From: Anabaena azotica SJ-1
GTDB taxonomy: Bacteria; Cyanobacteriota; Cyanobacteriia; Cyanobacteriales; Nostocaceae
Length of the DNA: 64,000 nucleotides
NCBI RefSeq assembly: GCF_047275885.1
Contig: NZ_CP178454.1
Location: 2,407,817-2,471,816, forward strand
Direction: 5' to 3'
Below are positions 51,323-63,751 of this stretch, piece by piece. The translations under genes and the position numbers were made by a program. The notes below the pieces were generated by a model. It worked only from the letters and a program-made list of their open reading frames with translations, had not been told where the DNA came from and did no database searches. The number at the start of each line of letters is the position of its first letter. Position 1 is the stretch's first letter.

Positions 51323-52090
51323 ATGTCTGTGCCGTTGCTTCGCCTCAGCGACAATTTTGATAAGTATATTAGTGGCGAGGTAAATATTCATAAGAGCGCG
51401 GTACTTGCTCCAGGGGTAATACTCCAAGCAGCTGCCAACAGTAAAATTATTATTGGTCCTGGGGTCTGTATTGGCATGGGGTCAATTCTCCAAGTCAATG
51501 AGGGTATCCTAGAAGTAGAAGCAGGAGCAAACCTGGGAGCCGGGTTTTTGATGGTTGGCCCTGGTAAAATCGGTGCTAATGCTTGTATTGGTGCAGCTAC
51601 AACAGTATTTAACTGTTCCGTAGCACCTGAACAAGTTATTCCATCAGGTTCGGTTTTGGGAGATAACAGTCGTCAGATTGATCACAATTTACAGGAAGAG
51701 CCAACTTCCACAAATCCCACTTCTACAAATCCCCCAGAGCAACAACCAGAGAAAAAAGTAATTACTACCACTCAATTCTCTGCTGCGGCCTTTATAGATT
51801 TTAAACAACAATCTACTTCCCTATCTCCACCTTCTCCCACCCCTAAAAGCCAGTCCCCTCCAGTGGCAGAAACACCCCTGGTTACTGACTCTATCCCAAC
51901 AGAAACGACTCTCCCAGGTTCTCCAGAAACTAACTCTCAAGAATCCGAATCTAGTCCAGCTAACACTGAACCCAATAACACTTTTGGGACACAGATATAT
52001 GGACAAGGAAGCATTAACAGACTATTGATTACATTGTTTCCTCATCGGCAATCCTTGAGCGACGAAAACTCTGACAATTCTTCAGAGTAA
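51323..52090 (+). CDS. ccmN: Carboxysome protein CcmN, with a long P/S/T-rich linker and a C-terminal encapsulation peptide.
   Basis: Hexapeptide-repeat beta-helix N-domain, followed by about 100 aa of low-complexity PST sequence, then an amphipathic tail (GQGSINRLLITLF). Confidence 0.8.
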   Translation: MSVPLLRLSDNFDKYISGEVNIHKSAVLAPGVILQAAANSKIIIGPGVCIGMGSILQVNEGILEVEAGANLGAGFLMVGPGKIGANACIGAATTVFNCSVAPEQVIPSGSVLGDNSRQIDHNLQEEPTSTNPTSTNPPEQQPEKKVITTTQFSAAAFIDFKQQSTSLSPPSPTPKSQSPPVAETPLVTDSIPTETTLPGSPETNSQESESSPANTEPNNTFGTQIYGQGSINRLLITLFPHRQSLSDENSDNSSE

Positions 52091-52136
52091 GTGTTAATTG
52101 TTAGTTGTCTTTGTTTGCGAGTATCCTGGTGAATTC

Positions 52137-52925
52137 ATGATGGAAACATACAATCAACGCGCTCTTAGCACCATCAAGGCATCACGTCGCCGCGACAATC
52201 TCAAGGATACTGCCTTGGGTTTAGTATCGACACTCAGCTTTCCAGCTATAGTTGGAACGGCTGATATGATGTTAAAGTCAGCTGGAGTCCACTTAGTAGG
52301 CTATGAAAAGATTGGTAGTGGTCACTGTACAGCTATTGTCCGTGGTGGCATTGCCGATGTGCGTCTGGCTGTAGAAGCTGGTGTACAAACAGCAGAACAG
52401 TTTGGACAATTGGTTTCTAGCTTGGTTATTCCACGACCTTATCCCAATTTAGATATAGTTCTGCCTATTAACCGTCTGAGTCAAATGATTGAGGAGGGCA
52501 GTTACAGCCGTCTGAGTAATCAAGCGATTGGTTTGGTAGAAACTCGTGGTTTTCCAGCCATGGTTGGTGCTTGTGATGCCATGCTCAAAGCAGCAGATGT
52601 GCATTTAGCTTCTTATGAAAAAATAGGGGCTGGTTTATGTACTGCCATTATTCGTGGTTCTGTTGCTAACGTCGCTGTAGCAGTGGAAGCGGGAATGTTT
52701 GAAGCAGAAAGGATTGGGGAGTTGAACGCAGTCATGGTGATTCCTCGACCTTTGGATGAGTTAGAACAAACCTTACCAGTAGCTAATTGCTGGGTGGAAG
52801 AACGTCAACCGTTAAATATTCCTTTGAATATCAAAGATAAGATTGTGGATGCAGTGGCAGTGGAGTTACCAGATTTAGCTAAACTACCTGTAAAAGTTAA
52901 AGAAGAACTTTGGATGGATGAATGA
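52137..52925 (+). CDS. ccmO: Carboxysome shell protein CcmO (tandem BMC domains).
   Basis: Two BMC domains. The ATG at 52137 (MMETYNQRAL) is preferred over the upstream TTG of the ORF track. Confidence 0.85.
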   Translation: MMETYNQRALSTIKASRRRDNLKDTALGLVSTLSFPAIVGTADMMLKSAGVHLVGYEKIGSGHCTAIVRGGIADVRLAVEAGVQTAEQFGQLVSSLVIPRPYPNLDIVLPINRLSQMIEEGSYSRLSNQAIGLVETRGFPAMVGACDAMLKAADVHLASYEKIGAGLCTAIIRGSVANVAVAVEAGMFEAERIGELNAVMVIPRPLDELEQTLPVANCWVEERQPLNIPLNIKDKIVDAVAVELPDLAKLPVKVKEELWMDE

Positions 52926-53171
52926 TGAATGGTGAATAATCAATAATTTTGGATATTCAACATTCATCTTAGGTTGGAAGGCATCTTACGTTTTGTGTTG
53001 TTTTGATGATAACCTCTCAATTCCATAAGTCCAATACCGCACTTCTGATAGCGAAGATAGATATTTATCTATGCTTAGACTTATAAGTTGGTATGTGTGA
53101 CACTACATAATTGGCTAGTGTGCAGTGATACTAAATATATGTTGACGAATTGCTATTAGAGGAGAATCACC

Positions 53172-54116
53172 TTGAACCAAGCGACACTGCACCAGTTGAA
53201 GGTGTTCGAGGCCGCTGCACGGCACGGTAGCTTTACTCGTGCTGCTGAAGAATTATTTCTCACCCAACCTACCGTTTCTATGCAAATCAAGCAGCTAACA
53301 AAGTCGGTAGGGTTGCCATTATTTGAGCAAGTGGGGAAGCGGTTATTTTTGACGGAAGCGGGACGGGAGTTATTTGCCACTTGTCGCCAGATTTTTGAAA
53401 CTATATCCCAGTTTGAAATGACGGTGGCTGATTTAAAAGGTCTGAAACAAGGGCAATTACGCTTGGCAGTAATTACCACCGCAAAATATATTATTCCGCG
53501 TTTGTTGGGTCCGTTTTGCCAACTTTATCCAGGAATTGATATTTCACTGCAAGTTACGAATCATGAACGAATTTTAGAACGAATGATTGGTAACATGGAT
53601 GACTTGTATATTATGAGTCAAGTACCAGATCATGTAGATGTCAATTTTGAAGCATTTTTAGAAAATCCTTTGGTGGTTTTTGCACCTGCTAATCATCCTT
53701 TGGCACAGGAAAAAAATATTCCCATTGAACAGTTGGCAAATGAACCGTTTATTATGCGTGAACCAGGCTCAGGTACACGTCGTGCTGTGCAGTCTCTTTT
53801 AGATGAACATGGCCTCAAGGTGAAAGTAAAGCTGGAATTAGGGAGTAATGAAGCGATTAAACAAGCAATAGCTGGAGGGCTGGGAATTTCGGTTTTATCT
53901 CGTCATACTTTATTGACTGATGCTCACGAGTTCAGTATTTTGGATGTGCAGCATTTTCCCATTAAGCGGACTTGGTATATAGCTCACCCAGCAGGTAAGC
54001 AGTTATCTATTGTCGCTCGCACTTATTATCAATATCTGCTAGAGGCGGCAAAGAAGATAGTGGAGCTAGAAGATATTTCTCTTCCAACTACTCCTGTTCC
54101 TAAACTTCCAGAATAA
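53172..54116 (+). CDS. LysR-family transcriptional regulator, a candidate CcmR/NdhR/CmpR-type CCM regulator.
   Basis: N-terminal wHTH (LHQLKVFEAAARHGSFTRAAEELFLTQPTVSMQIKQLT) plus the LysR substrate-binding domain. The role is inferred only from adjacency to the ccm and ndhF3 operons. Confidence 0.8.
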   Translation: MNQATLHQLKVFEAAARHGSFTRAAEELFLTQPTVSMQIKQLTKSVGLPLFEQVGKRLFLTEAGRELFATCRQIFETISQFEMTVADLKGLKQGQLRLAVITTAKYIIPRLLGPFCQLYPGIDISLQVTNHERILERMIGNMDDLYIMSQVPDHVDVNFEAFLENPLVVFAPANHPLAQEKNIPIEQLANEPFIMREPGSGTRRAVQSLLDEHGLKVKVKLELGSNEAIKQAIAGGLGISVLSRHTLLTDAHEFSILDVQHFPIKRTWYIAHPAGKQLSIVARTYYQYLLEAAKKIVELEDISLPTTPVPKLPE

Positions 54117-54428: not shown

Positions 54429-56063
54429 TTGGTAATGACTAACCCGGAATTATCATCTTGGTGCAGAACAGTACAAAGCAAGATTATTGCTGTCACAGTC
54501 TATGGTGACAAAGCTTTAGTGACGAGACGAGGTGTAATCTCTTTAACGGGAGAAGAACGGGAGTTATTGATTACACCATTACCTGTAACTCTGGAAACGG
54601 AGTCTGTGAGGGTAAGCGGTACTGGTACGGTAGGAGTGCGGTTGCTGGGAGTAAGCAGCGATCGCATTTATACTACTGAACCAGTGGCAGAAAGAGTAGC
54701 ACAGTTGACGAGACAAATTCAGCAACTAGAAGCAGAAAAACGCCATCTGCAAGCCCAAATAGATGCTTTAGCATTACAATCTAATTTTATTGCTGGGTTG
54801 GGAGATAAGACAGAAGAACCCTTTGCTCAGAGCCTGTCGCGGAAAAATCTGAGCTTGAGCGAAACGCTGGATTTTCTCAACTTTATTGGTAGTCAGTATA
54901 GCGAATATGCGATCGCCTCTGGAGAATGTAAAACTCAACAACATGAGTTAGATAAACAATTACAATCACTCCGTAGCGCCTTACAAAAAATCCAAACACC
55001 CCAACCCAAAGAAAGCTTAAACGTGATTGTGGGCGTAGAAGTTGGTGGTGAAGGTGAGTTTCAACTAGAAATATCCTATCTAGTAAATCATGCCAGTTGG
55101 AAACCCCTTTATGATTTACGGGTTGATAGTATCAATAATATCCTACATCTAAGTTACCTAGCAGAAATTACCCAAACTACAGGAGAAGATTGGTTAGATG
55201 TAGCTTTAACTCTTTCTACCGCTAAACCGGGATTAGGTACACTTCCACCTAAGCTGAAAACTTGGTATATCGACACTCCACATATTCGCGCTAACGATAC
55301 CCTTACTGTTCAACGTTCTATGTCTCCTCCTCCTGCAATGGCTGTGCTTTTACCCGCACCTAGCAGTATGTCAAAGAAAATACAAGAGGAAGATGAAGAA
55401 AGTTTTATTGAAGCAAAAACAGTTATCACAGAAGTATCTAAACAAGGCAGTGTAGTTACTTTTAAGCTTAATAGTGGTGGTAACATTCCCAGTGATGGCG
55501 CACCTCATAAAACCACAATTTTTCAAGATGATTATCCTTGTAAATTCAATTATGTAGTCATGCCACGCTTAGTTAGCTTTGCTTATTTGCAAGCTAATGT
55601 GAAAAATAATTCTGATGGTACAACTTTGTTACCAGGAAAAGCAAATATTTTTCGGGATACTATTTTTGTCGGTGCAACTCAATTAGAAAATATCGCCCCC
55701 GGACAGGAATTTAAAATTAATTTAGGTATAGATGAAGGCTTAAAAATAGAACGTGATTTAGTTGAACGTCAAGTTGATAAAAAACTGATGAGCAGCCAAC
55801 GCCGCGTTACCTATGCTTATCGAATCGTAATTACTAACTTATTAAATCAAGAAATAAATTTACAATTAACAGATCAATTACCTGTGAGTCGCAATGAACA
55901 AATTAAGGTGCGGCTAACTCGTTCTCAGCCACAAATTCAGTTAAGTGAAATGGGTATTTTGGAGTGGGATATTGTGTTAGCAGCGCAGGAACAGCAGGAG
56001 GTATATTATCAGTTTACTGTTGAGCATCCGCCGGAGTTAACAGTGTTAGGGTTGGATATTTAA
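54429..56063 (+). CDS. DUF4139 (MuiA-like) family protein with a central coiled coil.
   Basis: N-terminal beta-rich region, coiled coil (QLTRQIQQLEAEKRHLQAQIDAL), and a long C-terminal domain. The family call has moderate reliability. Confidence 0.45.
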   Translation: MVMTNPELSSWCRTVQSKIIAVTVYGDKALVTRRGVISLTGEERELLITPLPVTLETESVRVSGTGTVGVRLLGVSSDRIYTTEPVAERVAQLTRQIQQLEAEKRHLQAQIDALALQSNFIAGLGDKTEEPFAQSLSRKNLSLSETLDFLNFIGSQYSEYAIASGECKTQQHELDKQLQSLRSALQKIQTPQPKESLNVIVGVEVGGEGEFQLEISYLVNHASWKPLYDLRVDSINNILHLSYLAEITQTTGEDWLDVALTLSTAKPGLGTLPPKLKTWYIDTPHIRANDTLTVQRSMSPPPAMAVLLPAPSSMSKKIQEEDEESFIEAKTVITEVSKQGSVVTFKLNSGGNIPSDGAPHKTTIFQDDYPCKFNYVVMPRLVSFAYLQANVKNNSDGTTLLPGKANIFRDTIFVGATQLENIAPGQEFKINLGIDEGLKIERDLVERQVDKKLMSSQRRVTYAYRIVITNLLNQEINLQLTDQLPVSRNEQIKVRLTRSQPQIQLSEMGILEWDIVLAAQEQQEVYYQFTVEHPPELTVLGLDI

Positions 56064-56159: not shown

Positions 56160-56399
56160 TTGCTAAGGATAAAAACAATGATACAGCCAGCTATTTTAGA
56201 GAAATTAGAAGAACTGCCTGAGTCTCTGCAAACAGAAGTGCTGCATTACATTGAATTCTTAATAGAAAAGCAGACTAAAACCCAAGAACAGCCAGCAAAA
56301 AAACGCCGTGTTGCAGGAACAATGAAAGCAATGTTTGTTCTCCCACTTCCTGATGATTTTGATCAGCCACTTGAGGATATGAAAGAATACATGGAATGA
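56160..56399 (+). CDS. Type II antitoxin (VapB-like, DUF2281-type).
   Basis: 79 aa. Its stop overlaps the start of the downstream PIN gene (ATGA). Confidence 0.6.
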   Translation: MLRIKTMIQPAILEKLEELPESLQTEVLHYIEFLIEKQTKTQEQPAKKRRVAGTMKAMFVLPLPDDFDQPLEDMKEYME

Positions 56400-56782
56400 A
56401 TAGATTACTATTAGATACTCATACTTTGATATGGTTTGTTACCAATGATGCAAACCTACCAGTTTCAACTAGAGAAATGATTGAATCTGCTGAAACTGTT
56501 TTTTTCAGCATTGCCAGTCTTTGGGAGATAGCAATTAAAATAAATATTGGAAAACTAACTCTACAGGGCAATTTTGAAGATATTGAACCTCAACTGATGG
56601 CTACGGGTATAACGATTCTCCCCGTTACATTTAATGATACTGTTCAATTCCGTTATTTACCTCTGCATCACCGTGACCCTTTTGATCGGATTCTCGTTGT
56701 ACAAGCAATAAATAATTCCCTTGTGTTAATTAGTCGTGATGTGGTTTTTGATGCCTATTCTATTCAGAGGGTGTGGTCGTGA
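56396..56782 (+). CDS. vapC: PIN-domain toxin VapC.
   Basis: LLDTHTLIW...the acidic PIN residues (D7, E, D at ISRD), 128 aa. Confidence 0.8.
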   Translation: MNRLLLDTHTLIWFVTNDANLPVSTREMIESAETVFFSIASLWEIAIKINIGKLTLQGNFEDIEPQLMATGITILPVTFNDTVQFRYLPLHHRDPFDRILVVQAINNSLVLISRDVVFDAYSIQRVWS

Positions 56783-56950: not shown

Positions 56951-57331
56951 TTGGAATTTTTATCAATTATGCCAGACGAAAGTATAAGAATTATTACTGA
57001 TGAAATACAAAACGTTTCTGAAACTAGTGGTGAAAAAGCTGCTTGGGATATAGGTAGCAATTGGAATATAGAGGTAAAAACTAAAGCATTGCCTAAAAAT
57101 GCGGCTGATGTTAGTATTTCCAAGCTTGAGCAAGAAATGACTCGCTTTATGCAGGATATAGATGGACTATTTAGCCGTGCAGAAAAACAGGCTGATATGA
57201 AATATATGCAGCTAGATGAAATTGAGTTAGCAGTAGAAATCAATGGTGAGGGACAAGTAAGTTTATTTGGCGCTGGAGCAAAAATTGGTGGAAAACAAGG
57301 TATAACATTGCGGTTTAAACGGCGAGCGTAG
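56951..57331 (+). CDS. Small Gly-rich protein resembling peptidase/trypsin-co-occurring (Trypco/Pepco-type) partner domains.
   Basis: The C-terminal segment IELAVEINGEGQVSLFGAGAKIGGKQGITLRFKRR is a beta-hairpin Gly-rich pattern. It ends 8 nt before the caspase gene. The start may be ATG 56969. Confidence 0.5.
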   Translation: MEFLSIMPDESIRIITDEIQNVSETSGEKAAWDIGSNWNIEVKTKALPKNAADVSISKLEQEMTRFMQDIDGLFSRAEKQADMKYMQLDEIELAVEINGEGQVSLFGAGAKIGGKQGITLRFKRRA

Positions 57332-57338
57332 ATTTAAT

Positions 57339-58958
57339 ATGCCAAAAAATTGGGCGATCGCAATTGGGATTAACCGATATGAGTTTTTGCAACCGCTAAA
57401 CTATGCCAAGCGGGATGCTGAGGTGATGCAGCAATTTTTTGCTAATGAAGCGGGGTTTAATAGGGTCTTGTTTTTCTCCGATGACTCACCTGATATTGAT
57501 GGTAAATCAACTCGTCCTTCTCTTACTAACCTGCTGCGAATTTTCCGGCAGATGTTTGAAACACCGTTTATGACTGCTGGAGATAACTTCTGGTTTTTCT
57601 TTAGCGGTCATGGTATACGATACGCTGACAGAGATTATTTGATGCCTTGTGACGGTGATCCTGGTGATGTGGAAAAGACAGCTATTGCTATTAGTTATAT
57701 CAGTGAACGTTTGCGTCGCTGTGGTGCTGATAATGTCGTCTTGATATTAGATGCTTGTCGTAATCAGGGTAATCGTTCTGGTGTAGGAATTGGTGATGAA
57801 ACAGCCACACAAGCAAAGCAAACAGGAATTATCAGTATTTTTTCCTGTAGTCCCAATGAATTATCTTATGAAGTAGACACTTTACAACAAGGGACTTTTA
57901 CTTATGCACTTTTAGAAGGTTTAGGTACTCAGGGTAAATGTGCTACAGTGGAGCGACTAAATCAGTATTTGAGCCATCGAGTACCTGAACTTAATCGTCA
58001 ATATGGTAAACCTCGACAAAATCCCTATACCATTGCTGAACCAGTCACAAAATCTCATCTGATTCTTTTACCGCAGTATGCAACCTTGCACGATATTTCA
58101 ACTCTAAAAAATGATGCTTATCAAGCTGAAGTGAGCAAAAATATAGATTTGGCAGAACAACTTTGGATTCGTGTGTTAGCTGTAGCATCAGGTCAAGATT
58201 TAGAAGCTATAAAATCACTACAAAGAATTGAAAGAGTGCGGATAGAAAATTCTAAATTACCTTGGACATTAACAACTAAGAATCAAAATCAGGATCAGAT
58301 TTTTGGTGTTAAATCTATTTACTCTATAATATCTAGTAAACCTAAGCCCTCCACAGCTAAAATATTCTTCACTTTATATCAAAGTATAGGAGTTCTAGTA
58401 GTATTAAGTTCAATATTTGTCTTGTTTTCCATCAGAGAAAAATTTGTGATACTGAATTCTAAAATACATCCTTCTCCGAGTCCATCAATTACTGAGACAT
58501 CTGTGTTGAGAAAAACCCAAGATAAAATTCAAGTTTCTCCAAATTCATCGACTAACCAAGAAAATTCGTCAGCATCTTCAAGTGGTTTTTTCTATTGTGG
58601 TGTAATTAATAATACACCAGCAACTATATATCAATCTTCCACCGGTAATGAATTAGCATTTATTCTTTGGGTTTCTACATATTTTAATGATTCTGGAAAT
58701 ACTCCTCAAAAACGCTGTCAAGAAGTATCAAGTCGGTTTCAAAGGTTACAAAGTAATGGAACACTAAATTATATAGTTCCTGGATATTTAGATGGATACC
58801 AGGCTTTGTGTGCCTCTAAAACTTCTAATAATCCAATTATGGAATGCAGACCAGACAATTTGATAATGTTACTAAGACCATCTGATAACCCTACCGAAAT
58901 TATTAATAATATGACTAAATTAAATAACAACATCAGTTCAAAACCAATTAAATTATAG
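57339..58958 (+). CDS. Orthocaspase (C14 peptidase) fused to a TM segment and a Cys-containing C-terminal domain (COP23-like?).
   Basis: Caspase His (FFFSGHG) and Cys (ILDACRNQG) dyad regions. A TM helix (IFFTLYQSIGVLVVLSSIFVLFSI). The tail carries motifs FYCGV, RCQEVSSRFQ and CRPDNLIMLL. Confidence 0.8.
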   Translation: MPKNWAIAIGINRYEFLQPLNYAKRDAEVMQQFFANEAGFNRVLFFSDDSPDIDGKSTRPSLTNLLRIFRQMFETPFMTAGDNFWFFFSGHGIRYADRDYLMPCDGDPGDVEKTAIAISYISERLRRCGADNVVLILDACRNQGNRSGVGIGDETATQAKQTGIISIFSCSPNELSYEVDTLQQGTFTYALLEGLGTQGKCATVERLNQYLSHRVPELNRQYGKPRQNPYTIAEPVTKSHLILLPQYATLHDISTLKNDAYQAEVSKNIDLAEQLWIRVLAVASGQDLEAIKSLQRIERVRIENSKLPWTLTTKNQNQDQIFGVKSIYSIISSKPKPSTAKIFFTLYQSIGVLVVLSSIFVLFSIREKFVILNSKIHPSPSPSITETSVLRKTQDKIQVSPNSSTNQENSSASSSGFFYCGVINNTPATIYQSSTGNELAFILWVSTYFNDSGNTPQKRCQEVSSRFQRLQSNGTLNYIVPGYLDGYQALCASKTSNNPIMECRPDNLIMLLRPSDNPTEIINNMTKLNNNISSKPIKL

Positions 58959-59108
58959 AACAGATTCTGATATAGATAAGCTTTAAAATTTGCACTAAAA
59001 AAAGGATAAATAATTGTATTATATGATTTAAAAAATATAGCTGATACATACTTTGTTTTTCAGATGATTAATATATAAGTACAGATACTATTTTCATGAT
59101 TTCTCAAC

Positions 59109-59555
59109 TCAATCACCAAGAAAATTCTGATCTAATATTTGCTCTATTGTAAAATGACAAGATGTAGGAAATGTAGAAACTGGTAAACCTGTTTCCTCAC
59201 TGGCTTCCATTACAGCACGAGGATAACATTGAGTGAGGAGTTCTGTTAATTGAGGCTTCAAGCTAGGACTATCTTGTAATGCTTCTTCGATTTCAAAACG
59301 ATTGTCTCTGATAGTGATTTGCCAACTTTTAGAACGCTTCTCAGGTTGATATTGCCATTTAAGTAAGTGCATGACAATTAATCTTAAATAGCTTCGCAAG
59401 GCTTTCTTTTCACTCCGTCCTAAAGTTTCAAGTTCCTCAATTAAATTTTCAATATCTACAGCTTGAAATTGATGCTCTCGTAATTTTTCTATGGTAGTTT
59501 CAAGCCATAGAGAATAATCTTGATCGTATAATGTTGCTTGAGTTTGAAGTTTCAT
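59109..59555 (-). CDS. DUF29 family protein (copy 4).
   Basis: LYDQDYSLWLE...LLKWQYQPEKRSKSWQITIRDNR core. Confidence 0.7.
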   Translation of the reverse strand: MKLQTQATLYDQDYSLWLETTIEKLREHQFQAVDIENLIEELETLGRSEKKALRSYLRLIVMHLLKWQYQPEKRSKSWQITIRDNRFEIEEALQDSPSLKPQLTELLTQCYPRAVMEASEETGLPVSTFPTSCHFTIEQILDQNFLGD

Positions 59556-59761
59556 GGCTTTTTATACTGTAAAATCTAGCATTTCTCCAGCCTTAATCCT
59601 ATTCTACAATCATCATCTCAATCTTTTAAATTTCGGTATGTTATGACGTTAGTTTATATGTAGTAGGTATCATTGGTCATAAGTAAAAAAAAAGAGCCAA
59701 TAACCAATGGCTACAGATTGGTAATTTCTGCTAAATATTTTTCAAATAAACAAATTCACAC

Positions 59762-60337
59762 TCAGCTTTGATAATCTGAAGAGAAAGCGTTTTTTCTCAT
59801 ACTTATGAATTTGTTGATACTGCCAATTTCTAATAAAGCAGAGCGCCAATCCCAAAAATCAGGAGCGCGATAGATAAAATAGCTAATTAAAAATGGACGC
59901 GCCAAAAATACAAAACTAATGGGAATTGTATCTCTAAACAGTTCTCTTTTTTGATTTAAGTGATTTAAGATGTGCGGTACTTTAGTTAAATTAGTAAATT
60001 TATCTTCTGTAATTTGTCCAAAATTTTCTTTTTCATATTGATAGAGTGAATGTTCTAAACCTGTAATTAATAAAACATCAAATGGTTGATTAATATAAAG
60101 CTCAAGCACTCTTTCATATAAAGTATCTATTGGCTCTATTAAACGCAAAACTTCGACTTTCTTATTTGGCAAATCATGGATTATTTTGGTAATTATTTTT
60201 TCATCGTCTGAAGGTTTAGACTGGACAAAATATAAGCCAAATTTTCTGTTGCGCGTCAGATGGCTAATTAAGTCTTGATATTCTTCTTTTTCATCAGGGA
60301 GTAAGTCTTCATCCAAATGGCTATAATTTTTCATCAT
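59762..60337 (-). CDS. Uncharacterised alpha/beta-type 'domain X' protein, translationally coupled to the upstream NTPase.
   Basis: 191 aa. It is paralogous to the N-terminal ~170 aa of the TPR protein at 62180..63751 (shared blocks GLYFVQ, VLRL.EP.D.LY, D.LLI.GLE.SLY.YEK.NFG.ITE, VP.ILNHLNQ.RE.FRD, RAPDF.DWRS). Confidence 0.7.
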   Translation of the reverse strand: MMKNYSHLDEDLLPDEKEEYQDLISHLTRNRKFGLYFVQSKPSDDEKIITKIIHDLPNKKVEVLRLIEPIDTLYERVLELYINQPFDVLLITGLEHSLYQYEKENFGQITEDKFTNLTKVPHILNHLNQKRELFRDTIPISFVFLARPFLISYFIYRAPDFWDWRSALLEIGSINKFISMRKNAFSSDYQS

Positions 60338-61659
60338 GGAAGTTTTTCTATAGCTTCTTTAAATTCCTGAATACCTTGAATAAGTGGGTGAATATCGTAC
60401 CAGCGTTGCATTTCCCCTTCTTCATCCAAGTACCGATACTCTAACAGACAGCGATTAAACATCAAACTCCGATACTGATCATCGTTAATTATCCGCTTAG
60501 AACGGGATACTTCTGCTAACAAACTCCATTGATGGTTTTCTACAGCACGGCGATAGGTGTCTCTAGCTTGCGTAATGGCGCGTCGAACTGCTCTTTGGGA
60601 AATTGGCAAATCTTGAGTGCGTCCAATCGCATCCTGAGTTAACAATAACAAATTTCTGACATGACCTCCACTCATTAAACAAAGTTGTTCTAGGGTTTCT
60701 GGACTGTCAAATATTGCGGTTTCTATAGGTTTATCGGTCGAAAACTGTTTAATTCGCCGCGAAATCACTTCTTTAACTTTATTTATTCCAGGTTGATAAA
60801 TTTCACCTTTGGGAGTACGAACCATTACCATTGGTAAAATTTGAGGATCACCGTATATATCACGTAAATCTGTTGCTCTTGTGGAATAGACCATCGCAAT
60901 GGGTACAGTATAAATTAGGTGACAATCTAAAGATTTTAGTTGTTCACACCGATCTAAAAAAACTTCTTCATAATTTGTACGTTCACCATCTTTAACTAAA
61001 ACCATTCGATCTAAGTTGTCAACAATTACCGCTAGTTGATTACAGTTAGCAGGTAGACGCTTTTTGACATCCGCCAGAAACTCATTTAAAACTTTAATTA
61101 AAGTGACAGTATGAGGATTTACTCTTTCTCTAATTTCTTGACGTAGCTCAGGAACGGCTCTTAAATTTGCTGTTAATTTAGCAAACTGACAAATTTGCAG
61201 TTCTACATTCATGTCCTCAATCTGAATTTCCGTTAGTGCCAAGTCTTTTAAATCTTGCCAACGATCTTTAAGCCAATTTAGCACTGGTTTAGGATTACCC
61301 ATTGTTCGTAATTCTTGCAGTAACCGCCGAGTACAAGCAAGCAGAATGTCTGTATATTGGGCATCTTCTGAATCAATATCTTCTTCATCGGCAGCAAAGT
61401 AAACTACATAACATTGTCTTGCTTCTAAATATTCTTTTAATCTCAGTAATTCTGTGGATTTACCTGCGCCTCTATGACCAGAATATAGTTGACAAGTATT
61501 TTGATTTGCTAATTGAATACGATTTCCTAGTTCTTCTAGAATATCTGCATCTCCTCGCACAGCTTGACAGTCTACGTAATTAGGATCACCTGCGGGTAAA
61601 GGCTGAAAAGGGTTAAAAGCATTGTAGAGGTTTTTGAGTAATTCAGAATTATTGGTCAT
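60334..61659 (-). CDS. STAND/ORC-Cdc6-like AAA+ P-loop NTPase without sensor repeats.
   Basis: Walker A (LYSGHRGAGKST), Walker B (LAVIVDNLD), and a Cdc6-like lid/winged-helix region (GGHVRNLLLLTQDAIG...). Its stop overlaps the start of the domain-X gene (ATGA). Confidence 0.75.
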   Translation of the reverse strand: MTNNSELLKNLYNAFNPFQPLPAGDPNYVDCQAVRGDADILEELGNRIQLANQNTCQLYSGHRGAGKSTELLRLKEYLEARQCYVVYFAADEEDIDSEDAQYTDILLACTRRLLQELRTMGNPKPVLNWLKDRWQDLKDLALTEIQIEDMNVELQICQFAKLTANLRAVPELRQEIRERVNPHTVTLIKVLNEFLADVKKRLPANCNQLAVIVDNLDRMVLVKDGERTNYEEVFLDRCEQLKSLDCHLIYTVPIAMVYSTRATDLRDIYGDPQILPMVMVRTPKGEIYQPGINKVKEVISRRIKQFSTDKPIETAIFDSPETLEQLCLMSGGHVRNLLLLTQDAIGRTQDLPISQRAVRRAITQARDTYRRAVENHQWSLLAEVSRSKRIINDDQYRSLMFNRCLLEYRYLDEEGEMQRWYDIHPLIQGIQEFKEAIEKLP

Positions 61660-62008
61660 AGGTAAACAACTTAGGTTCTTGGGTATTAATGAGACTAAAA
61701 AAATAGTAAAAATAAGCAGCGGTAAACAAGCAATTCAATTTTAAGCGAAGAAAGTGAGAATGTCATATAGCAATCTGGTTTTGTTGCTGGAATTACTTAC
61801 GCGGCTAGGGAATAGGGAGGAATTTTTTCAAGAATTAAATAGGAGGCTTATAGGACTTCCAATACCGCTCGGTTAATAGGTTAATATTTTTTGTAGCTTG
61901 GGCTTACCTGAAGGGAGTCCAAAAAGGCTTGTAAATGTTGGGTGATCTCTATGACTTACTTAGTGAAGATTCCTGAAAATAACTAACCTACATGATTTTA
62001 TTTTTTGC

Positions 62009-62119
62009 TAGGACTTACGCAAGTGTCACACCAAACATCTATTTTATGGTGCGTCAGATATCAAATATATGTTTATTTGCAGGATTTACAAAGTCTGACG
62101 CACCCTACTAATATGCTGA
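62009..62119. mobile_element. Third, right-truncated copy of the MITE family, flanked by a 36 bp direct repeat.
   Basis: The left TIR and core are identical to copy A up to ...CTACTAATATG; the right TIR is missing. CTGAAAATAACTAAC(C/T)TACATGATTTTATTTTTTGC is present on both sides. Confidence 0.7.
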
Positions 62120-62179
62120 AAATAACTAACTTACATGATTTTATTTTTTGCGCTTAACCGATAGGTATTGATAGAAATG

Positions 62180-63751
62180 CTATATTTTTAATTGCATTAA
62201 AGCTTGAAACCTTTTATCTTCTCGAATACAATCAAAATCAAGATCAGTTTTTGCCCTTTTTAAAACTTCCGCTGGTTGGAGACTAATTGCTTGTTGCAGG
62301 TTTTCTAATGCTTGCTCAATTTCACCATGAAGAGCATAACAGCAAGCTTTATTATACCAACCATAATTATCATCGGGTTTTATTTTTAGGGCTTGGTCAT
62401 AAGAAAAAATTGCTTCTTCAGTACGTCCTAAATCATCAAGTGCATTGCCCCGGTTATTCCAAGCATAGTGGTCATTAGGATTGAGTTTCAGGGCTTGATC
62501 ATAAGAAAAAATTGCTTCTTCATTACGTCCTAAACTTCGTAGTGCGATTCCACGATTATACCAAGCGTAGTAATCATCAGGTTGAATTTTTAATGCTTCG
62601 TCATAAGATAAAACTGCCTCTTCATTGTGTCTTAAATTCCGCAATGCTATACCCCGATTATTCCAAGCATAATGGTCATTAGGTTTATATTTTAAAGCTT
62701 CATTATAGGATAAAATTGCTTCTTCATTTCGTCCTAAATTCCGCAGTGTATTGCCAAGTTCGTACCAAGCATAGTGGTCATGAGGGTTATGTTCTAGAGC
62801 TTCATTATAGGATAAAATTGCTTCTTCATTCCGTCCTAAATTTCGCAGTGCATTGCCTCGATTTTTCCAAGCATAGTGGTCATAAGGTTTAATTTTTATT
62901 GCTTGGTTATAAGATGAAATTGCTTCTTCATTGTCTCCTAAATTCAATAGTGCATTTCCACGGTTGTACCAAGCATAATGGTCATCTGGTTGAAATTTTA
63001 GTTCTTGTTCGTAGAATGTAATTGCGGTTTCGTACTCATGTGCAGAATAAAGTAGATTTCCTAGTTCAAATAGTAAACTGGCTCTGTTACTATCTGTTTG
63101 ATGTTTTTCTGTAAGCAGTTCTTGGATTTCTAGAACTTTTTCAATTTTTTCTTCTGGAGTAAGTTGCAGATATTTTTCATAATCTCCTTCTAATAGAAGA
63201 CGACGAGATTCTTCTTCTACTAATTCTGGTGTTGTTGGTAATTCATATACTCCAGATCGCCAATCAAAAAAATCAGGAGCGCGATGAATTAAATAGTTAA
63301 GTGAAAATGAACGCAATAAAAATACGAAGCAAAATGGAAAATCATCTCTAAATCTTTCGCGTTGTTGGTTGAGATGATTTAGTATTGGCGGCACTTTGCT
63401 TAAATTTATAAATTGACCTTCAGTGATTTCACCAAAGTTTCTTTTTTCATATTTATATAAAGAATATTCTAGACCTTTAATTAATAAGATATCAATTTGT
63501 TGGTCTTGAATGCAATTAGTTATTTGTTGATATAACTTATCAACTGGTTCAAATAAGCGTAATACGGCAATTTTTTTATGGGGAATATCCTGGGGAATTT
63601 TATTAATAAAACGGTCAGATTCCACAGGATTACATTGTACAAAGTATAAACCAAATCCTGATTTCCTTTCCACGGCGCAAAGTAAATCTTGATAAATTTC
63701 TTCAGGATCTGGAGGGAAATCTTCATCCCAGGTACTGTAATTAAGTGTCAT
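62180..63751 (-). CDS. 'Domain X' fused to an array of about 11 TPR repeats.
   Basis: The N-terminal 170 aa are homologous to the 59762..60337 product. The C-terminal TPRs show the DHYAWYNRGNAL.NLGRNEEAI.SY pattern. Confidence 0.8.
   Translation of the reverse strand: MTLNYSTWDEDFPPDPEEIYQDLLCAVERKSGFGLYFVQCNPVESDRFINKIPQDIPHKKIAVLRLFEPVDKLYQQITNCIQDQQIDILLIKGLEYSLYKYEKRNFGEITEGQFINLSKVPPILNHLNQQRERFRDDFPFCFVFLLRSFSLNYLIHRAPDFFDWRSGVYELPTTPELVEEESRRLLLEGDYEKYLQLTPEEKIEKVLEIQELLTEKHQTDSNRASLLFELGNLLYSAHEYETAITFYEQELKFQPDDHYAWYNRGNALLNLGDNEEAISSYNQAIKIKPYDHYAWKNRGNALRNLGRNEEAILSYNEALEHNPHDHYAWYELGNTLRNLGRNEEAILSYNEALKYKPNDHYAWNNRGIALRNLRHNEEAVLSYDEALKIQPDDYYAWYNRGIALRSLGRNEEAIFSYDQALKLNPNDHYAWNNRGNALDDLGRTEEAIFSYDQALKIKPDDNYGWYNKACCYALHGEIEQALENLQQAISLQPAEVLKRAKTDLDFDCIREDKRFQALMQLKI

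Follow-up and report, generated by a model that had tools for sequence, protein, structure and literature searches.

To our knowledge, pairs of a Pepco protein and a protease are among the most abundant protease-effector modules of bacteria and only the trypsin/Avs4-linked pair from Streptomyces has been studied. SsPepco from Streptomyces subrutilus forms 9-10-mer beta-barrels that are resistant to sodium dodecyl sulfate (Evans et al., bioRxiv 2025; PMC12642450). It is encoded upstream of the trypsin-like protease domain of the Avs4 sensor, which removes a C-terminal tail of about 2 kDa after Ile97, and trypsin-linked Pepcos have a conserved Ile at this P1 position (PMC12642450). SsPepco truncated exactly at Ile97 is lethal to E. 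coli but is no longer toxic when its end is moved by one residue (PMC12642450). Here we describe a related locus in a 64,000-nucleotide (nt) stretch of Anabaena azotica SJ-1 (contig NZ_CP178454.1, positions 2,407,817 to 2,471,816 of the forward strand), which we call the window. It consists of a Pepco gene and, directly downstream, a gene for an orthocaspase that continues through a transmembrane (TM) helix into a COP23 domain. On the basis of its sequence, we assign this locus to the Pepco-protease kind; its regulatory or anchoring domain is new and its Pepco tail is nearly vestigial. We think it probable that the orthocaspase is tethered to the membrane and controlled via COP23, which would face outwards, and that the enzyme cuts back the C-terminus of Pepco barrels that are already assembled, producing a lethal pore.

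The features of the gene pair, with positions counted within the window, are these:

56969-57331, plus strand: Pepco gene, 120 amino acids from the ATG at 56969
57332-57338, plus strand: spacer of 7 nt between the Pepco stop codon and the caspase ATG, read from the sequence
57339-58958, plus strand: orthocaspase-TM-COP23 gene, 539 amino acids, with Pfam Peptidase_C14 and COP23 matches
57348-58049, plus strand: Peptidase_C14 (p20-type caspase) domain, residues 4-237, Pfam E-value 8e-27
57609-57611, plus strand: catalytic His91
57756-57758, plus strand: catalytic Cys140
58059-58301, plus strand: helical extension of the protease chassis, residues 241-321, conserved
58383-58454, plus strand: predicted single TM helix from the Kyte-Doolittle scan, residues ~349-372, IFFTLYQSIGVLVVLSSIFVLFSI
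58455-58589, plus strand: low-complexity linker rich in Ser, Thr, Pro, and Asn from the TM helix to COP23, residues 373-417, 45 amino acids
58590-58946, plus strand: COP23 domain, residues 418-536, Pfam COP23 PF14218, E-value 2.2e-26

An earlier, sequence-only reading of this DNA had described a protein of 126 amino acids ending 8 nt before a caspase gene. The adjacency of the two genes holds, but the gap is 7 nt and the protein is probably 120 amino acids long. The mechanically called open reading frame (ORF) does run from a TTG at 56951 to 57331 and encodes 126 amino acids. However, the NCBI 'Pepco domain-containing protein' of Anabaena azotica (P0121) has 120 amino acids, is identical, and has as its first residue Met7 of the longer ORF. 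Because P0121 and all of the homologues begin at Met7, the gene most likely spans 56969-57331. The second gene encodes 539 residues that match the Anabaena azotica 'caspase family protein' P0001 with 100% identity. It is probable that one transcript covers both genes. Their arrangement is not due to chance because the E-values of the domains are far under threshold and the pair recurs in many genomes.

As in the SsPepco-SsAvs4 pair, the small Pepco protein is encoded directly upstream of the protease, which in Streptomyces is fused to a sensor and here to COP23, a candidate sensor domain. Both Pepcos have an amphipathic hairpin, and a latent barrel toxin with site-specific cleavage at the end of the core, as described for Streptomyces, would apply here too. 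By contrast, the window protease is a C14 orthocaspase and not the trypsin-like domain of a STAND (signal transduction ATPase with numerous domains) protein such as Avs4. The putative P1 site is Lys-Arg rather than Ile and the tail has 2 residues rather than about 20. Also, the presumed regulator is an extracytoplasmic COP23 domain behind a TM helix, whereas the one in Streptomyces is a cytoplasmic sensor of the phage portal.

To place the pair among its relatives, species-representative genomes were scanned for Pepco genes. At least 369 loci contain a relative of the window Pepco, and the best 80, all of them cyanobacterial, were read for synteny. A caspase gene lies directly downstream of Pepco, on the same strand and within 3 kb, in 73 of these 80 loci, with a gap that is mostly 1-10 nt. 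The caspase ends in an FGE (FGE-sulfatase) domain in 54 of the 73, in a GUN4-containing region in 11, and in something else in 8; no COP23 C-terminus occurs among the best 80 Pepco loci. These orthocaspase-FGE and orthocaspase-GUN4 architectures of cyanobacteria have been noted before (PMC3501461, PMC5756287, PMC12642450). The pairs that contain them (in Nostoc, Calothrix, Microseira, and others) have the same gene order as the window and a gap of 1-10 nt, and are 70-77% identical to it in the caspase and helical region and 42-62% identical in Pepco. They differ in that the C-terminal domain in the window is COP23 behind a strong TM helix. Pepco is directly upstream of the caspase in all COP23-type, GUN4-type, and FGE-type loci examined.

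The protein searches gave a similar picture. About 100 of the 120 protein clusters closest to the window caspase are caspase-FGE proteins and a few are caspase-GUN4, caspase-pilin-like, or caspase-TPR proteins. Only 3 of the 120 are caspase-COP23 proteins, namely the window protein, P0002, and P0003. The latter two are metagenomic and are the two other lineages with a full-length pair of Pepco and caspase-TM-COP23; in every P0002/P0003 contig read (L001-L005) a gene for a Pepco of 120 amino acids lies 6 nt upstream of the caspase-COP23 gene. An exhaustive search with the COP23 half added one more caspase-TM-COP23 cluster, P0170 (partial), and P0285, a signal-peptide-caspase-COP23 protein that has no internal TM helix and whose contig is too short to contain a neighboring gene. 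Thus, the idea that the pair is conserved elsewhere is borne out by the 73 of 80 cyanobacterial loci, and the COP23 version by two further lineages.

Some of these relatives have features of their own. Approximately half of the caspase-FGE relatives (P0004-P0120) have a hydrophobic segment, which is weak (Kyte-Doolittle 1.6-1.95, residues ~375-400). Many caspase-FGE database entries are exactly 600 amino acids long, which looks like a truncation artifact. In Anabaena sp. CCY 9613 (L010/L011, 6612-10043), an MNT/HepT pair (NTP_transf_2 and HepT-like) is inserted between the Pepco and caspase-FGE genes. A non-cyanobacterial chassis is found on pSymA of S. meliloti (L096, 2321-6472; NZ_CP021819.1) in reversed order, with caspase-FGE followed by Pepco. 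The Pepco encoded there has 135 amino acids and ends in a Pro- and charge-rich tail of 25 residues after an FKR motif, resembling the tail that is removed from SsPepco. A VapBC pair lies upstream of it as in the window, with another VapB family.

The sequence-only reading had also likened the small protein to the domains that co-occur with peptidases. This was confirmed by a match to Pfam Pepco (PF24393) with an E-value of 2.9e-32 over positions 1-112 of the 112 in the model. A Kyte-Doolittle hydropathy scan of the protein revealed no hydrophobic segment, and it is predicted to be a small, soluble, cytoplasmic protein. It contains an N-terminal strand, a disordered linker, a long helix, a Gly-rich amphipathic beta-hairpin, FKR, and a tail of two residues (RA). 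Hydrophobic and charged residues strictly alternate in the two hairpin strands as read from the sequence (E-I-E-L-A-V-E-I and I-T-L-R-F-K-R), giving the hairpin one hydrophobic and one charged face as in the SsPepco barrel. By this analogy, the window Pepco is predicted to be a latent beta-barrel pore toxin.

Alignments of Pepco homologues show an invariant core and the FKR motif. Among caspase-linked Pepcos, F116 and K117 are invariant and R118 is at least 90% conserved, exactly at the end of the core, with a C-terminal consensus of G-[AG]-[IM]-[TK]-[LF]-[KR]-F-K-R. The number of residues after FKR is 0-9 in cyanobacterial Pepcos, 2 in the window, and 25 in the S. meliloti homologue. Because the S. 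meliloti protein runs from exactly this point into its tail, FKR marks the boundary between core and tail. All characterized C14 peptidases other than caspases have strict cleavage after Arg or Lys (PMC5756287), and Lys-Arg at the putative P1 of caspase-linked Pepcos fits this preference. From these comparisons we infer that the orthocaspase cuts at the invariant C-terminal Lys-Arg of [KR]-F-K-R and removes RA. Ile97 of SsPepco is equated with FKR by where core and tail meet rather than by an alignment. A tail of one or two residues could in principle hold the barrel latent since a one-residue shift already blocks the toxicity of SsPepco.

The orthocaspase is predicted to be catalytically competent because its dyad is intact, as had been thought from the sequence. 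His91 is in the motif SGHG and Cys140 in DACR, and they are kept in 116 and 118 of 120 homologues, respectively. The protein is matched by the PADLOC 'caspase' model (E-value 9e-17). It is a p20-only member of family C14, with no match to a second caspase subunit (p10) in the Pfam scan. The same scan detected no NTPase domain in the caspase polypeptide and no fused sensor of the STAND/Avs type, and the hydropathy scan detected no N-terminal signal peptide. NCBIfam NF047832 (caspase, EACC1-associated type) was considered and rejected, the score being 65.7 bits against a curated cut-off of 140 and the partner being Pepco, not EACC1. The helical extension after the protease domain is the end of the block common to the FGE, GUN4, SAVED, and COP23 variants. 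It is 63-80% identical to the FGE and GUN4 types and the similarity ends at residue ~301-321.

Our topology check located one hydrophobic segment in the orthocaspase, with a Kyte-Doolittle 19-residue maximum of 2.05, in agreement with the TM helix proposed earlier. An equivalent segment is present in P0002, P0003, and P0170. Beyond the helix, the sequence-only reading had envisaged an extracytoplasmic-looking domain of about 190 amino acids with four Cys and COP23-type motifs. The domain and its family are as proposed, but the part after the helix is 167 amino acids long, made up of the 45-residue linker and about 120 residues of COP23. The hidden Markov model (HMM) check identified this domain as PF14218, and its four Cys (Cys420, 460, 491, and 503) are each at least 99% conserved among 152 COP23 domains; the family also has conserved Pro, Thr, Trp, and Arg positions, and W444 and R459 are among the conserved residues in the window protein. 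An AlphaFold2 (AF2) model of COP23 built from 61 sequences contains a duplicated beta-beta-beta-alpha unit and has a predicted local distance difference test score (pLDDT) of 90 and a predicted template modeling score of 0.81, with low pLDDT in the linker residues at its N-terminus.

An exhaustive HMMER search placed the size of the COP23 family at 983 clusters at 50% identity. Most members have 150-240 amino acids with the domain starting at residue ~20-35, and 86 of 113 short stand-alone homologues have an N-terminal hydrophobic segment that resembles a signal. The stand-alone proteins (circadian oscillating protein of Cyanothece; PF14218) have the same domain and the same four invariant Cys as the window protein. 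They are typically secreted proteins with a signal peptide, whereas COP23 here is the C-terminus of a TM-anchored protease of 539 residues and follows an internal TM helix, which is atypical of the family. Because the family consists mostly of signal-peptide proteins with four invariant Cys, COP23 is read as an extracytoplasmic domain. The window caspase protein is therefore best read as N-in and C-out, where 'out' would be the periplasm or the thylakoid lumen. The domain is named for circadian oscillation and, in the portions of the literature available to us, is mentioned mainly in diel and N2-fixation transcriptomes.

We examined 20 multidomain COP23 clusters. COP23 is combined with Trypsin_2 in 9, with CHAT in 3, with Peptidase_C14 in 3, and with Fasciclin in 2, and occurs only in tandem in 3; in P0284, which is among these 20, the N-terminal region is not matched by Pfam. 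The arrangement with the protease inside and COP23 outside was seen in the window protein, P0002/P0003, P0170, and apparently the CHAT protein P0165, and in no others. P0165 has no Pepco neighbor; therefore, Pepco accompanies the caspase chassis rather than COP23. Another caspase relative, P0109 (561 amino acids, Logan contig of 2650 nt), has a protease that is 74% identical and a strong TM helix at residues 326-356. Its C-terminal domain of ~200 residues matches neither the COP23 HMM nor a precomputed Pfam annotation and may be another uncharacterized outside domain on the Pepco-caspase chassis.

The pair was then compared part by part with P0002 and P0003. Pepco is 86% identical, the caspase domain (residues 1-240) 85-86%, and the helical region (residues 241-305) 88-91%. 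By contrast, identity is 39-47% in the linker and TM region (residues 306-417) and 34% in COP23 (residues 418-539). Because Pepco and the protease are ~86% identical while COP23 is only 34% identical, the window has a different COP23 paralogue on the same chassis. Nucleotide identity to L001/L004 is 0.78-0.92 over 56953-58302 and 0.63-0.76 from there to about 58746; past this point, and upstream of the Pepco start, it is at random level. The window COP23 is 48% identical to that of the unrelated proteins P0165, P0166, and P0171 versus 36-38% to the COP23 of its nearest caspase relatives. It also did not group with the COP23 of P0002/P0003 in a neighbor-joining tree, which is not robust for so short a domain. 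The caspase part has a G+C content of 0.41 and the COP23 part one of 0.31; over 58000-60000 it is 0.31-0.33, compared with ~0.40 in the sequence coding for the caspase and 0.39-0.46 around the carboxysome genes further upstream. The decrease occurs at roughly the position (about 58302) where the conserved cassette ends. In the FGE, GUN4, and other variants, the first ~300-320 residues are 70-77% identical to the window caspase and are followed by full divergence. The simplest reading of these data is a cassette of ~1.35 kb, comprising Pepco and the protease, onto which different C-terminal modules, including different COP23 paralogues, appear to have been recombined.

A further variant of this chassis occurs on the conjugative plasmid pOSC7112.01 of Oscillatoria nigro-viridis PCC 7112 (L095, 4619-8198; NC_019763.1), where Pepco and a caspase-SAVED protein form the effector arm of an operon of the cyclic oligonucleotide-based antiphage signaling system (CBASS) type. 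The Pepco gene there (E-value 8e-30, annotated 'hypothetical protein') ends 1 nt before the caspase-SAVED gene, and this caspase shares 57% identity with the window protein over its first 300 residues. Next come a gene for a DncV-like CD-NTase that carries an AGS_C domain and then E1- (ThiF) and E2-like genes. This operon ties the chassis directly to defense. The regulatory domain of this protein occupies the same C-terminal slot as COP23 in the window, the slot that is held by FGE or GUN4 in other relatives. SAVED is a proven ligand sensor. Because of this, the C-terminal slot of the chassis is taken to be the regulatory slot, held by COP23 in the window, and is probably a sensor slot. The two differ in that SAVED senses cyclic oligonucleotides in the cytoplasm and comes with an enzyme that generates this signal, whereas the regulator in the window would face outwards. 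No SAVED or CD-NTase was found in the nine neighboring window proteins scanned and the window pair is not a CBASS.

Taken together, these comparisons allow us to propose a mechanism. Pepco would pre-assemble as a barrel of ~9-10 subunits that, as in its homologues, should be harmless until its C-terminus is trimmed. The architecture of the caspase protein suggests that the protease is kept inactive as a membrane-tethered monomer. Binding or loss of a periplasmic ligand by COP23 would then cluster the cytoplasmic caspase domains and activate them. The activated enzyme, which by homology would be Arg/Lys-specific, could make the cut at [KR]-F-K-R described above. The trimmed barrel would permeabilize the cytoplasmic membrane and kill the cell, as abortive infection or as altruistic suicide within a filament. 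In the course of evolution, the COP23 cassette may have been exchanged between paralogues on an otherwise conserved Pepco-caspase chassis. The scheme resembles that of bacterial gasdermins, where a neighboring and often caspase-like protease trims a short inhibitory C-terminus from a pore-former and the cell dies (PMC12642450). However, the pore proteins are unrelated and gasdermins oligomerize after cleavage, whereas Pepco is reported to be pre-assembled. The sequence-only reading had suggested a cell-death or defense effector, which by analogy agrees with the homologous pair (PMC12642450) and with the CBASS-type locus; the link that it drew to the neighboring VapBC and ATPase/TPR genes is unproven.

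We also considered a more specific version of this mechanism, in which COP23 is an exchangeable extracytoplasmic recognition cassette whose paralogues are swapped so that a periplasmic cue triggers pore-mediated suicide. This we put forward only tentatively. Candidate cues may include phage adsorption or a breach of the envelope, a signal from a neighboring cell, and binding to, or loss of, free COP23.

Several observations weigh against the proposed mechanism. The experimental precedent is the trypsin/Avs4-linked Pepco from Streptomyces and not a caspase-linked one. The window tail has just 2 residues, and trimming 1-2 residues would be uncommon for an endopeptidase. The AF2 monomer model of Pepco, which has a pLDDT of 67 and is thus of moderate to low confidence, places the C-terminal TLRFKR in a strand and not in a free tail. 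There is also an alternative cut site, since the N-terminal linker, which is disordered (residues 14-33), contains a semi-conserved G-x-K/R (G-x-K23 in the window Pepco). PADLOC returned the generic caspase model only, with no defined system-level match, and no Pepco relative was found in the phage collection. With regard to topology, the charges flanking the TM helix are +3 on the N-terminal side versus a net +2 on the C-terminal side, so that the positive-inside rule is indecisive. For COP23 itself, the predicted fold had no match among PDB structures and no ligand or activity is on record. Lastly, most COP23 protease fusions begin with a signal peptide, which puts both the protease and COP23 outside. 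Because most of these fusions are apparently wholly secreted, COP23 could be a localization or adaptor domain rather than a sensor.

This last point leads to an alternative where the killing mechanism is the same but COP23 serves in envelope localization or as a homotypic adaptor and is not the trigger. COP23 might, for example, dock to free COP23 proteins or to a component of the wall or thylakoid, and the protease would be activated from within the cytoplasm, be it via the helical region, by autoprocessing, or by another protein. Fusions such as those with trypsin-like (9 clusters), CHAT (3), caspase (3), and Fasciclin (2) domains are mostly signal-peptide proteins in which the protease and COP23 would both be periplasmic, and these need no transmembrane signaling. 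The existence of 983 clusters of stand-alone COP23 fits as well since a pattern of free and effector-fused copies resembles that of adaptor domains. However, sister proteins hold SAVED in the same C-terminal slot within a CBASS-type operon, and a COP23 that is 34% identical between chassis that are ~86% identical suits a recognition surface better than a generic anchor. On balance, we regard this alternative as doubtful.

The genes surrounding the pair bear on two other alternatives. These genes are as follows:

51323-54116 and 54429-56063: regions further upstream that contain carboxysome genes, a LysR-type regulator, and a MuiA-family (DUF4139/DUF4140) gene
56160-56782, plus strand: VapB (DUF2281) and VapC (PIN), matched in Pfam and NCBIfam, directly upstream of Pepco, listed as context only
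59762-60337, minus strand: N-domain protein of 191 amino acids, overlapping the ATPase stop by 4 nt
60334-61659, minus strand: AAA_16-like ATPase of 441 amino acids, AAA_16 score 25 bits against a Pfam cut-off of 32.6
62180-63751, minus strand: N-domain and TPR protein of 523 amino acids, of which the first 190 are 52% identical to the 191-residue protein

The two ORFs at 51323-52925 are, judged from their sequences, presumably the carboxysome shell genes ccmN and ccmO. The carboxysome, LysR, and MuiA surroundings suggest an ordinary chromosomal setting. Scans of the locus for promoters and terminators, repeats, and tRNAs gave nothing informative and no boundary of a mobile element. The N-domain of the 191- and 523-residue proteins has no Pfam match, and a DUF29 gene on the minus strand lies between the caspase gene and the ATPase/TPR set. 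The sequence-only reading had placed the pair beside VapBC and a STAND-like module. VapBC is indeed directly upstream; 'STAND-like' is less apt for what is an ATPase with a sub-threshold AAA_16 match and separate TPR genes. Toxin-antitoxin pairs are also found near homologous modules (L001, L004, L006, L010, and L096) and include RHH/PIN, HicAB, MazEF, ParE, MNT/HepT, and VapB_antitoxin/PIN. We considered VapBC as a part of the module and rejected this because the toxin-antitoxin families beside homologous modules are all different. Since these families are unrelated, they point to a shared kind of neighborhood and not to a conserved partner.

A second alternative is that the pair is a physiological, non-antiviral device for programmed cell death or differentiation. 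Selected cells of the filament would be killed upon envelope, redox, diel, or nutrient stress that is sensed in the periplasm or lumen, as in the formation of necridia or in stress-induced lysis. Orthocaspases are particularly frequent in cyanobacteria of complex morphology, and their association with programmed cell death is of long standing (PMC3501461, PMC5756287). The name of COP23 and its mention mostly in diel and N2-fixation transcriptomes, within the material available to us, are in line with this, and the four invariant Cys could report redox state. Also, the locus is chromosomal and beside carboxysome genes, and neither a tRNA nor repeats point to a mobile island there. By contrast, homologous Pepco-protease modules respond to phage proteins (PMC12642450), the chassis is found in a CBASS-type operon and on conjugative plasmids, and its neighborhoods are variable and rich in toxin-antitoxin modules. 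We therefore consider this alternative improbable as a replacement for a role in defense, with which it is compatible and not mutually exclusive.

Very improbable, in our estimation, is a third alternative in which the ATPase/TPR genes on the minus strand (59762-63751) are the real sensor and a split STAND-like NTPase activates the caspase, because neither the other COP23-type and GUN4-type loci nor L010, L095, and L096 contain such genes, those in the window are on the opposite strand beyond a DUF29 gene, and the AAA_16 match is under the Pfam threshold, even though full-length homologues of the 441-residue ATPase (~23% identity, E-value ~1e-17) occur 2-2.5 kb downstream of caspase-FGE in 24 of 91 Pepco loci, mostly from Nostoc and thus perhaps a single inherited arrangement, and in L008 (12942-16008) the gene after that of the ATPase encodes a TPR protein with the same N-domain as the 523-residue window protein. 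That the recurrence of this divergent ATPase near Pepco-caspase pairs reflects a functional link is suggestive but unproven.

Returning to the proposal of an orthocaspase controlled from outside the cytoplasm, we asked how much of this architecture has been described. Caspase-FGE, caspase-GUN4, and caspase-TM-receptor architectures were catalogued between 2012 and 2017 (PMC3501461, PMC5756287) and the Pepco mechanism was reported in 2025 (PMC12642450). The metacaspase-TM receptors are the most similar in topology, with a cytoplasmic caspase-like domain joined via TM helices to an extracytoplasmic domain; examples are the Trichodesmium metacaspase-CHASE2, Microcystis MaOC6, and 'metacaspase + C-terminal TMH' in seven cyanobacteria (PMC3501461, PMC5756287). 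They have other outside domains, and a Pepco partner is not described in these two papers. Since the 2012 survey relied on Pfam 25, some of the proteins that it counted as 'metacaspase + TMH' may in fact be COP23 fusions. The sequence-only reading had raised the possibility that the fusion is undescribed, and in the literature searched, as far as its text was accessible, no paper was found that names both 'COP23' and 'caspase', the COP23 papers being transcriptome studies. It appears, then, that the caspase-TM-COP23 architecture is recorded in domain annotations but is seemingly undiscussed. The Pepco-caspase module itself is known and abundant and only the COP23 variant is new.

The locus is of interest for both of its proteins. 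A caspase-linked version with a predicted Lys-Arg at P1 and a near-vestigial tail bears on how C-terminal trimming opens the Pepco barrel. With a control domain outside the cytoplasm, a prokaryotic caspase could be regulated like a receptor. For COP23, the data provide a first functional context: it recurs alongside proteases of three classes, and its fold is predicted with confidence but has no solved relative. The killing chassis is conserved while the outside domain diverges sharply, and this difference indicates where the recognized ligand should be sought. Should COP23 indeed be an exchangeable recognition cassette, this would represent transmembrane, receptor-type control of a prokaryotic caspase and would assign a first molecular role to an orphan family (~1000 clusters) whose domain is habitually joined to proteases of the trypsin, CHAT, and caspase types.

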